Origin: Candidatus Altimarinota bacterium
GTDB taxonomy: Bacteria; Patescibacteriota; Gracilibacteria; JBDHUY01
Direction: 5' to 3'
Length of the DNA stretch: 64,000 nucleotides
Assembly: GCA_039809385.1 (NCBI GenBank)
Contig: JBDHUY010000001.1
Span: forward strand, 64,001-128,000
Both the position numbers and the translations under genes were made by a program. Positions 60,732 to 64,000 of this stretch are shown piece after piece; within the stretch, counting starts at the first letter, position 1; the number at the start of each line of letters is the position of its first letter. The notes beneath the pieces were generated by a model that was given only the letters and a program-made list of their open reading frames with translations, ran no database searches and was not told where the DNA came from.

Positions 60732-61241
60732 CTAAGGTGATAGCTCTACATAAAACTTGCCCTCCTGCGAAGCCGAGAAGCCCTCTTTGCTGGAGAATCC
60801 CAGGTTAGAAGCATTGCCTTTGGCGGGGTTTTCCATCTTGGCCGCTATCACGAAACCGTTATCCGGAATGTCGTTGGAAGACAGAGAACGGTAATAAAAA
60901 TAGCCCGGCTCGTTACATCCCTCGCCGACGACGTTTTTGCCGTTCGGATCGGCCGGGAAGCGATTGGCGTCCAAATATTTGCCGCTGATCAAAGCCTGTC
61001 CTACTGTTGAATTGGGACTCAGGCATCCGCCGCTGGGGGAAGATGGATAATCCTGATTATCGCTCTTGTACTGGATGAGGGCGGTAACGATATTTTTCAA
61101 TTCGGCTTTGCGGGCATCGTCCGAGGCCCGGCCCAGCGCTCCCAGCAATTTAGGAAATAGGGCTACAGCCAGAATACCGATAATCACGACAACCAGCATA
61201 ATTTCGATCAATGTAAATGCTTTTTTGGTGGAAGAAGTCAT
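60732..61241 (-). CDS. type IV pilin / GspG-like pseudopilin
   Basis: KKAFTLIEIMLVVVIIGIL prepilin motif; ARKAELKNIVTALIQY...YP...DP. Confidence 0.92.
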   Translation of the reverse strand: MTSSTKKAFTLIEIMLVVVIIGILAVALFPKLLGALGRASDDARKAELKNIVTALIQYKSDNQDYPSSPSGGCLSPNSTVGQALISGKYLDANRFPADPNGKNVVGEGCNEPGYFYYRSLSSNDIPDNGFVIAAKMENPAKGNASNLGFSSKEGFSASQEGKFYVELSP

Positions 61242-61336
61242 ATGAAAAAGAGAAAAGTAAAGAGATGGATATTTTATGGCAAAGGCCTAAAGAGTGTACT
61301 TATTCAGATAAGCAAAAGCAAGACCGGTCAGGTCGT

Positions 61337-62200
61337 CTAGTTGCCATATTCGCAACTATTGTTTTCCGTTTCGGGAAATGCCGGAATAACTCCGTTCGCT
61401 CTTTTTATAGTAAGCTCGGCGTCATCAAAGTTCACCATACAATCGCGGTTGGTGTCGGAGAGCGATTCCAGAGTAGCCTGGGTCAAACTGATATCGTCAA
61501 AAACTCCCTGGGTCTGCATGGCGACCAGATAGGCCGGCCAATTCTGAAAATATTTATACATGACGATCGCATAGGCGTCATCACTTGCAATACGCCCGTC
61601 ACGATTAACATCCCCTATGGGGTTTTCGGGATCGACCGCCACTCCCGGGGCATGGGAGGCAGCGGCGCCGGAAGCCGCGGAATTGACAGAACGGGTATTG
61701 ACGGTTAAAGCATTGCTGACCTCCTGCAACCCGTTCTCTCCATCCTGTTTCAACACTCCAAACGTATAACGAGTGTTCGGCTGCAGTTCTGTAGCGATAA
61801 CCCGTTTCGAGTCGTTTACATTTTCGGTGATACCGGTATGGTCCGCATGTATATCTTCAAACAGGTTCCACGATTCGATCATCTGCCGGGTCGTCAGTTC
61901 TCCGGTATAGTATTTGATATCATAACCGACCTGTCCGGTGTAGGATCCCGCCGGCGGTGCGGGTTCGTCCCACAACAGTTCTACATTTCGATTACCCACT
62001 TGGCCCGCCGACAGATTGAGCGTATCTTGCGAAATATTGATGAGATCTGATTTCAAGCGCGAACCGGTATCGTTGACATAGCCGACCACCAGCACCGAGA
62101 CAATGAAGATCCCGGCAGCCAGCAGCAGATTAAGCCGGTGTTCTTGCCAGAAAGAAGCGGGTGGAATCGTATTTTTGGGAATGTTTTGAGACATATCCAT
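61337..62200 (-). CDS. membrane-anchored fn3 plus dockerin-like protein
   Basis: N-terminal TM; ELQPNTRYTFGV; GDVNRDGRIASDD and DTNRDCMVNFDD EF-hand-like pair. Confidence 0.75.
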   Translation of the reverse strand: MDMSQNIPKNTIPPASFWQEHRLNLLLAAGIFIVSVLVVGYVNDTGSRLKSDLINISQDTLNLSAGQVGNRNVELLWDEPAPPAGSYTGQVGYDIKYYTGELTTRQMIESWNLFEDIHADHTGITENVNDSKRVIATELQPNTRYTFGVLKQDGENGLQEVSNALTVNTRSVNSAASGAAASHAPGVAVDPENPIGDVNRDGRIASDDAYAIVMYKYFQNWPAYLVAMQTQGVFDDISLTQATLESLSDTNRDCMVNFDDAELTIKRANGVIPAFPETENNSCEYGN

Positions 62201-62268
62201 TTTGTTTGTTTCTCATTATTATACTCCAAATGCGTCAAATGCGCGAACGATATTTTTTTTGAAAATTA

Positions 62269-62297
62269 TTGCAATTTTTATATTTCAAGAGTAACGT
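62269..62297 (+). promoter_or_regulatory. candidate sigma70 promoter for the leader-kinase transcript
   Basis: TTGCAA-N17-TAACGT. Confidence 0.5.
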
Positions 62298-62316
62298 TTA
62301 AGAGAACATTGAATTT

Positions 62317-62412
62317 ATGAAAAACACATCCCTCCTTTCCGCCAACTTTTTTGGATACTACTTCTACTTCTTTTTTACGAAGAGGGGTTTTTGTTACGCG
62401 GATCAAGGATAG
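62317..62412 (+). CDS. Phe/Tyr-rich attenuator leader peptide (31 aa, not in ORF track)
   Basis: MKNTSLLSANFFGYYFYFFFTKRGFCYADQG*; 9 of 10 consecutive codons are Phe or Tyr. Confidence 0.8.
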   Translation: MKNTSLLSANFFGYYFYFFFTKRGFCYADQG

Positions 62413-62478
62413 ACATTAAAAACATACCGCAACAATAAGAAAAACCTCTCTTCACCACTTACGAAGAGAGGTTTTTTT
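62379..62478 (+). terminator. attenuator: antiterminator (62379-62392 with 62440-62453) versus terminator (62440-62453 with 62463-62476, plus U tract)
   Basis: GAAGAGGGGTTTTT / AAAAACCTCTCTTC / GAAGAGAGGTTTTTTT. Confidence 0.82.
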
Positions 62479-62509
62479 ATACTTTATTTCTGCCATAAAA
62501 ACATATATT

Positions 62510-63442
62510 ATGAAGGTTCTGGGAATAGGCGAAGTCGTCGCCGATAACGTTTACAGGGTCAACGACATGTCGCTCACCGATCAACAGCCCTGCTCACAGC
62601 AGGTACAACACTGCCTGGGCGGTCCGGTTCCGATCGCGCTTATACTTCTGGCCCGTCTGGGAGTGAACTGTACATTACTTGCCAGTATCGGGACAGACGA
62701 ACAGGGCGAAGACCTTAAAAAAGAACTCCGGCACGAACGCGTTCATCTCCTGACACAGCACCAACCCGCTACCAAATCGAATATTATTCTGGTGGATGAA
62801 AAGACGGGAAACCGCAAAAAGATGCGTGGGTCGGTGACCCATGCCCCTTTACGAAACCTGAAAACCGAGTTCCTTCGACAATTCGACGTCATCCTGATTG
62901 ATCGTCATGAGCCGCAAGCTTTGTACGAAGTTCTACAAAAAAAAGCTCCGCACACCCGGCTGGTCATCGACCCTTCAACCGAAATATCCGCCCTGACTCT
63001 GGACATGCTCAAACACGCCGAGTATCCGATTGTACCGATTGAAGGGGTTCTGAAAATAGACGGAGGCTCCACGCTCTTTGAAAAGATCAAGGCACTCTAT
63101 GCCATGAGCCGCAAAGAGATCATCGTTACCGCCGGCAGCCTGGGCACGATTCTCTACGACGGCAAAACTATCGAGATCATTCCCAGCATGGATATCCGTG
63201 CACAGGACACCAACGGGGCCGGCGATGTGTTCCGGGCCGGGGTTATTTACGGTGTTTTACGCAAATGGGATATCCGCAAAAGCATCAAAATGGGCAACGT
63301 GGTAGCCGCCCTGCAATGCTTAAAACCGGGCAACAGTACAGCCATTCCCACCAAACGGGAGATCATCCGCGCTGCAAAAAGCTTACGTCCCAAGCACATC
63401 GAGATTCGTCATCTGGAAGCATACTGTCAGGAGCTGGGATAG
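62510..63442 (+). CDS. PfkB/ribokinase-family carbohydrate kinase
   Basis: GGPVPIALILLARLG, VTAGSLG, DTNGAGDVFRAG. Confidence 0.92.
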   Translation: MKVLGIGEVVADNVYRVNDMSLTDQQPCSQQVQHCLGGPVPIALILLARLGVNCTLLASIGTDEQGEDLKKELRHERVHLLTQHQPATKSNIILVDEKTGNRKKMRGSVTHAPLRNLKTEFLRQFDVILIDRHEPQALYEVLQKKAPHTRLVIDPSTEISALTLDMLKHAEYPIVPIEGVLKIDGGSTLFEKIKALYAMSRKEIIVTAGSLGTILYDGKTIEIIPSMDIRAQDTNGAGDVFRAGVIYGVLRKWDIRKSIKMGNVVAALQCLKPGNSTAIPTKREIIRAAKSLRPKHIEIRHLEAYCQELG

Positions 63443-63444
63443 CA

Positions 63445-63607
63445 AGCTATCAGCAAACAGCGGTCAGCTGACAGCGGGAACAGACAGGGAGCAAGCTATC
63501 GGCGAGCAGCGGTCAGTAGAAACTGTGAAATTGATAGAAACTTATTGAAATTGGTTGCCCTTCCTGCAGTCACTCTGACTCTGAGCGGAGCGAAGAGGAA
63601 GAGTCTC
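63445..63607 (+). repeat. composite repeat stack homologous to 28192-28310 and 52530-52605
   Basis: agctatcagcaaacagcggtcagc...gaaattggttgcccttcctgcagtcactctgactctgagcggagcgaagaggaagagtctc. Confidence 0.75.
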
Positions 63608-63760
63608 ATACGTACTTCATGCATGTAGAACCAGGTAAACGGCACTATTTGAAATTTGGATTTGGACATTTGTCATTCTTTTGATATTTACATTCATGCA
63701 TACCTTTCCTCTATCTTTCTCATTATGGAGTGGCTGAAAAGTCTCCAAGACATTGTATCA

Positions 63761-63984
63761 GTCATTCCGGCCCCGAAGGGGAGCCTTGCTCTTGCCCGCC
63801 TGCCCCGCCTTCTGGCGTGGGGAATCCGGGTACTGGTACTACAGTATGAACAAGAGTGATGTTCACTGTTATTACCTGATAGAGAGGAATGAATCGTGAT
63901 ATTCTCTCCATGGAATTACACTTCAATGAGTGCCTTAAACAAAGCTCTGTGCGTGTACGGATGCTGGGCGGAGCCAGCATGACA
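63761..63984. repeat. REP-doublet-like element
   Basis: Left GTCATTCC...GGAATCC, right GGATGCTGG-gcggag-CCAGCATGACA. Confidence 0.6.
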
Positions 63985-64000
63985 AGAAAAAAACACCAAT

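Follow-up and report, generated by a model that had tools for sequence, protein, structure and literature searches.

The 64,000-nt stretch of DNA analysed here (the window) carries near its end a gene that raises a simple question: what does a sugar kinase contribute to aromatic amino-acid synthesis, so that it would be the first gene placed behind a leader-peptide attenuator? That the gene belongs to the PfkB family, as the preliminary description of the window had it, is borne out. Its product is a true sugar kinase with the ribokinase (PfkB) fold and falls into a separate, YihV-like clade. The Pfam PfkB model (PF00294) matches residues 6-281 (E 4.8e-27) with 95.5 bits against a gathering score of 25.8, and the AlphaFold2 model (pLDDT 92.1) displays the alpha/beta domain and beta-sheet lid typical of this fold. 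Structural comparison of the model using Foldseek gives TM scores of 0.77-0.83 to ribokinase and YihV structures (0.83 to 1vm7, 0.77 to 7ag6), with ribokinases ranking level with YihV. The key residues are D12, G37-G38-P39, T88-K89, R102, D131-R132-H133-E134, G236-A-G-D239 and R242. Among them, the GG dipeptide (G37-G38) and the GXGD motif (G236-A237-G238-D239) are invariant in an alignment of 36 sequences (A1), and K89 is kept in 31 of the 36 family members. Database matches are labelled 'sugar/nucleoside kinase', and a search of the ESM Atlas returned generic PfkB clusters and nothing more specific. The genome itself (1.87 Mb, CPR/Patescibacteria-like) contains this one PfkB gene only.

Coordinates of the features at the kinase locus (window positions)
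Feature	Position	Strand	Basis
Leader ORF, 31 codons, ATG start, MKNTSLLSANFFGYYFYFFFTKRGFCYADQG	62317..62412	+	translation
Phe/Tyr codon run (segment 1); pairs with segment 2 in the ribosome-free fold	62347..62376	+	RNAfold MFE of 62300-62485
Segment 2, within the leader ORF; pairs with 62440-62453 as antiterminator	62375..62392	+	direct repeat D11, RNAfold
Intrinsic terminator: 16-bp stem, 9-nt loop, T7 run	62438..62478	+	RNAfold -21.0 kcal/mol
PfkB-family kinase, 310 aa	62510..63442	+	Pfam, 36-sequence alignment A1, profile match to YihV 7ag6, AlphaFold2 model
Repeat-filled spacer, continuing to window-equivalent 64063	63443..64000		repeat and terminator scans
Class-II ketose-bisphosphate aldolase, next gene after the kinase	L001 4064-4903 = window 64064-64903 (beyond the window)	+	downstream gene calls

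The short leader ORF upstream of the kinase reads FFGYYFYFFF at residues 11-20. A six-frame scan of the whole genome found two ten-residue windows with at least nine F/Y/W; the leader is the only ORF with a start codon at this density (at least nine of ten), and the other window, on contig C3, was discarded as a T-tract lacking a start codon. Segment 2 of the leader is a near-copy (94%) of the 3' arm of the intrinsic terminator, whose 3' end lies 32 nt upstream of the kinase ATG. According to RNAfold, the resulting antiterminator (14 bp, -26.7 kcal/mol) competes with the terminator and becomes the MFE structure once a ribosome is placed at codons of about 15-16, while a ribosome that covers the leader up to the stop codon leaves the terminator as the sole remaining structure. 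The locus thus combines an aromatic-codon ORF with a terminator and an antiterminator that exclude each other, which upholds the earlier proposal of an aromatic attenuator in front of the kinase. Under a shortage of Phe- or Tyr-tRNA, the ribosome would stall within the aromatic codons and segment 2 would pair with segment 3, so that the terminator would be absent and the kinase transcribed. The arrangement shares with the E. coli pheL-pheA leader attenuators (Rfam RF01859) a short aromatic-codon ORF, alternative 1:2, 2:3 and 3:4 hairpins and an intrinsic terminator; it differs in that the leader codons are mixed F/Y/W and that control falls first on a kinase gene, in place of pheA or a DAHP synthase gene. 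No Rfam family matched at gathering score in window positions 61000-64000 or in L001 2000-13000, and the only Phe_leader match in that scan (25.2 bits) lies on the wrong strand. A consensus terminator scan reported the attenuator hairpin on the minus strand only, because the 9-nt loop of the plus-strand form is above the limit of the scan.

Past position 64000, the kinase strand continues with genes for a class-II aldolase, a DAHP synthase, a chorismate mutase/prephenate dehydrogenase (CM-PDH), a prephenate dehydratase (PDT-ACT) and an aminotransferase, as had been anticipated for an aromatic operon extending beyond the window. The DAHP synthase scores above the NCBIfam DAHPS cut-off (301.1 vs 267.75), and the aldolase, which is the only class-II FBA of the genome, above that of the cbbA 'ketose-bisphosphate aldolase' subfamily (223 vs 215.6). 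Intergenic gaps in this cluster measure 216-620 nt and are rich in repeats. The 620-nt gap behind the kinase, described earlier as stacks of repeats without a clear terminator, consists of dispersed repeats that occur up to about 10 times in the genome, and terminator scans found no plus-strand terminator-like site between the kinase stop codon and the next gene. A small W/Y-rich ORF in this gap (window 63753-63899) was considered as a second leader and rejected, because it belongs to a repeat element of which another copy follows the aldolase gene. The GC content of the cluster genes is 47-55%, compared with 45.7% for the genome, which was judged uninformative on gene transfer.

Comparison with relatives ties the kinase to aromatic synthesis far beyond this one genome. 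A DAHP synthase (or DAHPS-like) gene adjoins the kinase in 29/29 related Patescibacteria loci with room to look (directly downstream in 26, after an interposed class-II aldolase in two and directly upstream in one), and an aromatic leader ORF precedes the kinase in 28/30 loci (leader plus terminator in 27/30), counts that are not independent, since the genomes are MAGs related to one another and, for the most part, of unknown completeness. Shuffled sequences were positive for such a leader ORF in 21/1500 cases (1.4%). Where kinase and DAHP synthase are directly adjacent, their ORFs often overlap or nearly abut, and Pfam annotation of 120 ORFs from 12 loci agrees with the adjacency; kinase identities across these loci range from 29 to 50%. 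The co-occurrence of kinase orthologs with aromatic genes, which had been put forward as a check, was found throughout. On this comparative evidence, the kinase gene of Patescibacteria comes first after a conserved, predicted leader-peptide attenuator (Phe/Tyr/Trp) and directly adjoins the gene for DAHP synthase. Therefore, judged from adjacency and leader conservation, it is a dedicated, apparently aromatic-starvation-induced member of an aromatic amino-acid operon. The clade is almost wholly restricted to Patescibacteria. Database relatives at 85% and 65% identity to the kinase are located on short contigs; a search of 40 genomes of its own class gave a best match of 24% identity and no ortholog, and a metagenome scan with the single kinase protein gave one match only, also 24% identical. 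Distant Acidobacteriota homologs (24-29% identity) were excluded from the ortholog set; four of them lie near a PDT gene, in contexts that are otherwise unrelated.

In the profile search, E. coli YihV is the nearest relative with a solved structure (7ag6, E 2.9e-36), and a maximum-likelihood tree joins YihV to the operon kinases (96/93 support, long branches) and separates them from RbsK, PfkB, FruK and KdgK; YihV, which had been invoked earlier among the PfkB members that phosphorylate C1 of ketoses, is accordingly the nearest characterised one by profile and tree. Both proteins share the PfkB fold with a beta-clasp lid and the GGP motif at about 21-23% identity, and the sugar diol Asp D13 and catalytic Asp D244 of YihV correspond to the invariant D12 and D239. 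YihV is described as a 6-deoxy-6-sulfofructose 1-kinase with a sulfonate-binding triad K27-N109-R138 (PMC8006165). Of this triad only the Arg is kept: R138 falls on or next to the invariant R132, whereas K27 is replaced by Q26 and N109 by R106. YihV also lacks the T-K pair that the kinase clade has at the TR-motif position, and its sulfoglycolysis neighbours YihS, YihT and YihU are absent near the kinase, where the neighbours are aromatic-pathway genes. YihV feeds a DHAP-releasing aldolase, a likeness to the kinase-aldolase pair proposed below. The TR motif, which binds the sugar phosphate in phosphosugar kinases such as E. coli Pfk-2 and FruK (TRQN/TRIN), aligns with T88-K89-x-N91 at 17-19% identity, with Lys in place of Arg; these two enzymes stand on the opposite side of the tree from the kinase clade, and the phosphosugar kinase model TIGR03168 (Pfk-2/FruK/LacC) scores 45.4 bits, below its cut-off of 216.4. 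NCBIfam matches include ribokinase, KdgK and IolC models, and the ribokinase equivalog TIGR02152 also stays below its cut-off (91.4 vs 299.65 bits). The residues N14, K43 and N46, which we take to bind ribose in E. coli RbsK, are not conserved and align with V10, P39 and I42 (A3), in alignments to characterised PfkB enzymes that rest on 17-23% identity.

Several functions could be assigned to such a kinase, and three of them find little room at this locus. The preliminary description had proposed that it makes 6-deoxy-5-ketofructose-1-phosphate (DKFP) or a precursor of it for the alternative AroA'/AroB' entry into the shikimate pathway, which would fit a nearest characterised relative that phosphorylates C1 of a 6-deoxy ketohexose. 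This reading is close to refuted: DHQ synthase II (PF01959) was found in none of the five genomes searched, including the one studied here (a control search was positive in three archaea), and the kinase is followed by a canonical DAHP synthase and, in relatives with the full pathway, by a canonical AroB. No ADH synthase (a class-I, DeoC-family aldolase) was found in the cluster, whose aldolase is of class II, and the genome's only DeoC-family aldolase is encoded on contig C7 with TIM, GAPDH and PfkA. According to White and co-workers, the phosphate of DKFP reportedly comes from DHAP, and no kinase is needed. A non-orthologous shikimate kinase could be sought in a genome without a convincing AroK (the best SKI match, at 25.8 bits, is gluconokinase-like). 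This replacement was rejected and retains a negligible probability, because a normal AroK is encoded within the kinase's own operon in four relatives (L006, L007, L010 and L022); moreover, the genome studied here lacks AroB, AroA, AroD, AroE and AroC, and therefore no shikimate would be available to phosphorylate. Very improbable, too, is a ribose-1-phosphate kinase of the pentose-bisphosphate (RuBisCO) route, which would lead ribose from scavenged nucleosides to 3-PGA and PEP. The NCBIfam models for that enzyme do match, but with 70.6 and 56.9 bits they remain far under their cut-offs of 500 and 330, and while a RuBisCO gene precedes the kinase by about 3 kb in one relative (G004), RuBisCO was found in only one of five genomes searched and not in the kinase's own.

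The explanation that we tentatively put first, at somewhat below an even chance, is that the dedicated, attenuator-controlled kinase of the aromatic operon is an ATP-dependent ketose-phosphate 1-kinase acting on sedoheptulose-7-phosphate and/or fructose-6-phosphate, and that it supplies precursors for DAHP synthase. Taken together, the evidence suggests that it feeds aromatic synthesis by a route not yet described. The enzyme would phosphorylate C1 of either substrate at the expense of ATP, and the bisphosphate would then be cleaved by an FBP/SBP aldolase, here presumably the one encoded between kinase and DAHP synthase. Cleavage would yield DHAP plus erythrose-4-phosphate (E4P), or trioses leading to PEP, E4P and PEP being the two substrates of DAHP synthase. 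Pfk-2, FruK and tagatose-6-phosphate kinase, each with a class-II aldolase, perform the same chemistry as the one proposed, from ketose phosphate through ketose bisphosphate to the aldolase, and a class-II ketose-bisphosphate aldolase gene adjoins the kinase here and in two Dojkabacteria loci. In genomes with transketolase and without transaldolase, 2 F6P + ATP would give 3 E4P by our own stoichiometry, an irreversible and transaldolase-independent pull towards E4P. Transaldolase occurs in only 1/29 kinase genomes, compared with 36/151 genomes of a class-level sample and 7/11 of the DAHPS-positive genomes within it (one of them, G136, unpublished), and transketolase is present in 24/29. In cellulolytic clostridia, PFK and aldolase are reported to take the place of transaldolase (PMC7029132). 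The kinase genomes offer a background like that of this sedoheptulose-1,7-bisphosphate bypass (PPi-PFK and FBA), nearly all transaldolase-negative and mostly transketolase-positive, in which kinase and aldolase would give E4P; the clostridial kinase is a housekeeping enzyme of the PfkA/PPi family, whereas the candidate here is a PfkB protein under predicted aromatic attenuation. A further precedent is a Saccharibacteria TM7x 'ribokinase' beside FBA, predicted to be a pfkB-type PFK (PMC12815258).

Against a ketose-phosphate kinase stands the genome itself, which has neither transaldolase nor, in contrast to the clostridial case, transketolase and, for this reason, no known source of sedoheptulose-7-phosphate; it does encode a phosphoketolase, a possible source of E4P, as well as a PfkA-type PFK. 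Transketolase is missing from all three genomes whose operon includes the aldolase (G000, G004, G057). Since transketolase or phosphoketolase occurs in 27/29 kinase genomes, E4P would not strictly depend on the kinase. A strong FBA match was found in only 17/29. Most other kinase genomes have additional PfkB paralogs, and in three (G047, G002, G048) one of these lies beside FBA and transketolase and is a rival candidate for the PFK or sedoheptulose-7-phosphate kinase. The kinase could instead act directly on a substrate or product of DAHP synthase with no aldolase step, either as a tetrose/tetrulose kinase that makes erythrose-4-phosphate or as a KdgK-like 7-kinase that converts 3-deoxy-arabino-heptulosonate (DAH) to DAHP. 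This would suit the immediate neighbourhood of kinase and DAHP synthase in 26/29 loci, with an aldolase in between in only two loci and the present one, and the lack of a strong FBA match in 12/29 genomes. The invariant Arg132 would be compatible with a carboxylate ligand no less than with a phosphate, and PfkB kinases of 2-keto-3-deoxy acid sugars do exist, with KdgK and IolC among the matches mentioned above. We nevertheless consider such an activity unlikely: the DAHP synthase at this locus is canonical, even the divergent DAHPS-like proteins keep KSRT (alignment A2) in the place of the KPRT motif, which we take to bind phosphate, so that a phosphorylated aldose substrate is favoured for them, KdgK groups in the tree with the other paralog and not with the kinase clade, and neither free erythrose nor free DAH has a source known to us. 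Somewhat less probable still is an ordinary sugar kinase (a ribokinase, fructokinase, nucleoside kinase or housekeeping PFK) that is merely co-located with aromatic genes. Ribokinases are among the best NCBIfam and Foldseek matches, the labels are generic, and the sole PfkB gene lies beside the only class-II FBA, so that the pair could serve general glycolysis. There is also the case of a C. thermocellum enzyme annotated as PfkB that turned out to be a fructokinase (PMC10339645). Chance co-location is hard to reconcile with adjacency to DAHP synthase in every locus at such low kinase identities and with the conserved place directly behind the aromatic attenuator; the low score of the ribokinase model and the unmatched RbsK residues also speak against an ordinary sugar kinase, and in other genomes the separate paralogs could perform housekeeping functions.

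How organisms whose pentose-phosphate pathway is truncated obtain erythrose-4-phosphate has long been a loose end. A more far-reaching form of the ketose-phosphate proposal, which we regard as rather doubtful, is that the whole clade consists of PfkB-type sedoheptulose-7-phosphate and/or fructose-6-phosphate 1-kinases, which would catalyse the committed, ATP-driven step in supplying E4P and PEP independently of transaldolase and would be wired through the leader to Phe/Tyr/Trp sensing. If true, the shikimate pathway of Patescibacteria would gain a 'step zero'. In the literature covered, which excluded most subscription journals and supplements, no paper was found on a PfkB kinase tied to DAHP synthase, on a PfkB-type sedoheptulose-7-phosphate kinase or on leader-peptide attenuation in Patescibacteria. 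Gene order links one uncharacterised kinase clade to DAHP synthase at each of the loci examined, and a conserved predicted attenuator links it to aromatic starvation; the question of the E4P source thereby becomes a matter for a simple enzyme assay. A positive outcome would set right labels ('sulfofructose kinase', 'ribokinase') that are systematically misapplied across Patescibacteria genomes, and would sharpen the metabolic modelling of these symbionts; half of them appear to retain just the two ends of the aromatic pathway. Here, a bolder corollary concerns the genomes without AroB-AroC, in which the pathway might be shared with a host or an unknown route might lead from DAHP to prephenate. 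About half of the other kinase genomes resemble the present one in lacking AroB and AroC, and such genomes keep the kinase together with DAHP synthase and CM/PDH/PDT.

The PfkB-family kinase behind the Phe/Tyr leader ORF is very probably a dedicated, attenuator-controlled member of an aromatic operon, as its gene neighbourhood in relatives indicates. A protein search returned 138 homologs, of which two metagenome proteins are 85% and 65% identical to the kinase and all others at most 53%; those with taxon names are Patescibacteria. Species-representative genomes yielded 80 loci in a scan. The ortholog set comprises 31 loci (L003-L033, 29-50% identity), almost all from Patescibacteria MAGs, and several of its taxon labels (e.g. 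'Gammaproteobacteria') look like mislabels; more distant homologs (24-29% identity, mostly Acidobacteriota), for which no consistent gene context was found, were left out. At all 29 of the 31 loci with sequence on the relevant side, the kinase is associated with a DAHP synthase (DAHPS) or DAHPS-like gene, which lies directly downstream in 26, downstream past an intervening class-II aldolase in two (L018 and L033, both Dojkabacteria) and directly upstream in one (L012). Pfam calls for 120 ORFs from 12 loci delineate a full operon in L006, L007, L010 and L022, consisting of kinase, DAHPS-like, aroB, aroA, aroK, aroE, aroD, aroC, chorismate mutase (CM), (aminotransferase), a prephenate dehydrogenase-prephenate dehydratase (PDH-PDT) fusion and pheS, and shorter ones elsewhere, e.g. 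in L004 with kinase, DAHPS, CM, aminotransferase, PDH/PDT and tyrS. The TyrA-PheA (PDH + PDT) fusion ORFs are 430-470 aa long (L006 17930-19333, L007 14309-15625, L010 12482-13792, L022 11281-12567). In many loci the DAHPS-like protein measures 300-320 aa and stays under the Pfam and NCBIfam thresholds; the family (alignment A2: L007 7673-8602 and eight homologs) retains GPCS, KSRT and DPSH motifs, and its PDB relatives are I-beta DAHP synthases only.

Upstream of the kinase, the leader region is predicted by folding to be a classical four-segment attenuator. A six-frame scan of the genome detected two 10-residue windows with at least nine F/Y/W, the leader and one other, a T-tract without a start codon that was rejected as a leader. 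The terminator 5' arm can pair with a copy of the 3' arm located inside the leader ORF, forming an antiterminator of -26.7 kcal/mol. In the ribosome-free fold this copy pairs with the Phe/Tyr codons; a ribosome modelled on codons ~15-16 makes the antiterminator the fold of lowest energy, and one modelled at the leader stop codon leaves the terminator alone. Rfam did not recognise the attenuator (top Phe_leader match 25.2 bits, on the wrong strand), and the terminator scan gave the hairpin on the minus strand only, its plus-strand loop being 9 nt long. Two minus-strand genes diverge from the leader, encoding a type-IV-pilin-like protein (N_methyl + T2SSG, window 60732-61241) and a fn3/dockerin-like protein (window 61337-62200). 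Among relatives, a leader, defined as an ATG-started ORF with at least five F/Y/W in eight residues no more than 450 nt 5' of the kinase, is present in 28 of 30 loci (own locus counted), and in 27 of the 30 it is combined with a hairpin/T-run just 5' of the kinase; mononucleotide shuffles yielded such an ORF in 21 of 1500 cases. No leader ORF was found at L012, where DAHPS precedes the kinase, or at L019, and at L016 the script detected a leader but no terminator. Codons 3' of the aromatic run copy the GGGAGG arm of the terminator in many of the leaders; judged from sequence, this is the same logic as at the Altimarinota locus. The aromatic control of the kinase proposed in the preliminary description is thus upheld by its attenuator and by the conservation of the leader.

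The contig extends beyond the window end at 64000 and, as had been anticipated, carries aromatic genes there: the aldolase gene is followed by DAHPS, CM-PDH, PDT-ACT and aminotransferase genes, all on the strand of the kinase and on a putative shared transcript. The observation that only repeats and no clear terminator follow the kinase also holds, since plus-strand scans found no terminator-like site up to the aldolase and the spacer is repeat-filled. Spacers in the cluster measure 216-620 nt and are filled with dispersed repeats of up to ~10 genomic copies. The aldolase gene has a copy of a ~250-nt direct repeat on either side (81-84% identical; L001 3734-3983 and 4939-5157), and an 87-aa ORF (L001 4893-5156) was rejected as a gene because it lies inside this repeat, of which it is a copy. 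Further downstream, two ORFs without family match (602 and 348 aa) separate the aminotransferase gene from an rve-type integrase/transposase gene ~3 kb beyond it (L001 13968-14843, minus strand), and a 910-aa SecD/SecF protein with two PPIC-type rotamase domains is encoded at L001 16847-19579 (plus strand).

Features of the kinase locus and related genes (L001, the own locus running past the window end, is numbered as window position minus 60000; G, genome, with G000 the Altimarinota genome, GCA_039809385.1; C, contig)
Feature	Position	Strand	Details
Leader ORF	window 62317-62412		31 codons, MKNTSLLSANFFGYYFYFFFTKRGFCYADQG
Copy of terminator 3' arm	window 62375-62392		94%, inside leader ORF
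Terminator hairpin	end 32 nt 5' of kinase ATG		16 bp, T7 tail, -21.0 kcal/mol
Kinase ORF	window 62510-63442	+	310 codons, open frame
Repeat-built spacers	L001 3443-4063, 4904-5383, 6140-6625		aromatic cluster
Class-II ketose-bisphosphate aldolase	L001 4064-4903	+	NCBIfam cbbA subfamily, 223 vs 215.6
DAHP synthase, I-beta type	L001 5384-6139	+	TIGR01361, 301.1 vs 267.75
CM-PDH fusion	L001 6626-7762	+	
PDT	L001 8339-9178	+	ACT domain
Class I/II aminotransferase	L001 9395-10576	+	
PfkA	G000 C7:36247-37170		
Phosphoketolase	G000 C13:37679-38896		
Conserved PfkB paralog cluster	L098 (G047:C42), L099 (G002:C18), L100 (G048:C83)		glycerate kinase (DUF4147/MOFRL), split transketolase, FAD-linked oxidase, FBP aldolase (class I or II), second PfkB

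Residues 6-281 of the kinase match Pfam PfkB with 95.5 bits (cut-off 25.8), the only such match in the genome (1.87 Mb, 26 contigs, 95% complete), and none of the 24 NCBIfam models touching it reaches its cut-off, the top one being ribokinase TIGR02152 (91.4 vs 299.65). A confident AlphaFold2 model from 36 homologs (pLDDT 92.1, pTM 0.91) fits ribokinases and E. coli YihV about equally well (TM 0.77-0.83). In the profile comparison YihV is the top match among solved structures (E 2.9e-36); it is described as phosphorylating C1 of 6-deoxy-6-sulfofructose, and its product passes to an aldolase (PMC12890257, PMC8006165). A maximum-likelihood tree of 15 sequences, in which branches are long, unites YihV with the operon kinases and separates them from E. 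coli RbsK, PfkB, FruK and KdgK (96/93). YihV D13, D244 and R138 are described as the sugar diol residue, the catalytic base and a sulfonate-binding residue (PMC8006165). The two aspartates correspond in the alignment to the invariant D12 and D239 of the kinase, and R138 aligns on or beside invariant R132, part of a family-specific DRHE motif; K27 and N109 of YihV are not conserved. In addition, T88-K89-x-N91, with K89 kept in 31 of 36 family members, aligns to the TR(x)N motif of Pfk-2 and FruK, described as phosphate-binding (PMC8006165). These alignments, at ~20% identity, suggest an anionic substrate, probably a phosphorylated ketose.

Several functions could be discarded. A shikimate kinase is excluded by the presence of AroK alongside the kinase in operons of relatives. 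A ribokinase was rejected on the low TIGR02152 score and because V10, P39 and I42 align with RbsK N14, K43 and N46, the sugar-binding residues of the E. coli enzyme. The earlier proposal that the kinase makes DKFP or a precursor for the AroA'/AroB' shikimate entry finds no support: DHQ synthase II was detected in none of five genomes, the cluster aldolase is of class II and the pathway enzymes are canonical. A ribose-1-P kinase feeding RuBisCO was likewise rejected, RuBisCO occurring in one of five genomes searched and not in the Altimarinota genome. A RuBisCO large-subunit gene lies at L033 5723-7042 (G004, Dojkabacteria), ~3 kb 5' of the leader that precedes the kinase.

AroB, AroA, AroK, AroD, AroE and AroC were not detected in the Altimarinota genome, whose sole EPSP-family gene is MurA, nor were transketolase and transaldolase; DAHPS, CM-PDH, PDT, phosphoketolase and PfkA are retained. 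In this genome the aromatic pathway is thus 'gapped' and the pentose-phosphate pathway truncated. Among 29 kinase-bearing genomes, AroC is found in 14 and AroB in 15; neither is found in 14, and G055 has an AroB match and no AroC. All genomes without AroB/AroC nevertheless retain the leader, the kinase, DAHPS(-like) and the enzymes that act after chorismate. The gap may reflect genes on unassembled DNA, a pathway shared with a host, or enzymes that have escaped recognition. Transketolase is present in 24 of the 29, phosphoketolase in 11 and either of them in 27, and strong class-II FBP aldolase (FBA) occurs in eight (12 at E <= 0.001), with class-I FBA in nine further genomes. Transaldolase is present in one of the 29. 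For comparison, among 151 genomes sampled at class level around a genome that bears an ortholog, 11 are DAHPS-positive (G136 is one of the 11), and seven of these 11 have transaldolase, so kinase and transaldolase tend to be mutually exclusive in DAHPS-bearing Patescibacteria, a lead rather than a statistical test, given related genomes whose completeness is unknown. In this sample 36 genomes have transaldolase, and the kinase profile matches two, the ortholog-bearing genome and G203, in which the matching gene does not adjoin the DAHPS gene.

Tentatively, and with slightly less than even confidence, the kinase is proposed to be a ketose-phosphate 1-kinase supplying DAHPS precursors. Where transketolase is present and transaldolase absent, a sedoheptulose-7-P (S7P) 1-kinase and an FBP/SBP aldolase would convert, by our own arithmetic, 2 fructose-6-P (F6P) + ATP to 3 erythrose-4-P (E4P); such an irreversible pull towards E4P, the scarcer DAHPS substrate, would make sense of the co-regulation with DAHPS. 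Similarly, cellulolytic clostridia are described as replacing transaldolase by PFK and aldolase (PMC7029132), although the clostridial kinase is of the PfkA/PPi type (PMC10339645). A full-text literature search, with few subscription journals in its scope, found no paper describing a PfkB kinase-DAHPS link, a PfkB-type S7P kinase or leader-peptide attenuation in Patescibacteria. Against the proposed reading, transketolase was detected neither in the Altimarinota genome nor in the two Dojkabacteria genomes whose operon includes the aldolase, so that S7P has no known source in these three; phosphoketolase, present in the former and in G004, is a possible E4P source. In these three genomes, conversion of F6P via FBP and trioses to PEP would be a simpler role, but the Altimarinota genome already has PfkA. 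Also against the preferred 1-kinase assignment, most other kinase genomes encode further PfkB paralogs, which in G047, G002 and G048 include one clustered with glycerate kinase, transketolase, FAD oxidase and FBA; for TM7x, a similarly placed kinase is described as a predicted PFK (PMC12815258). This paralog is 23% identical to the kinase, groups with KdgK in the tree and has a ribokinase-like Asn-Glu where the kinase has Arg-His, and a division of labour between the two is possible.
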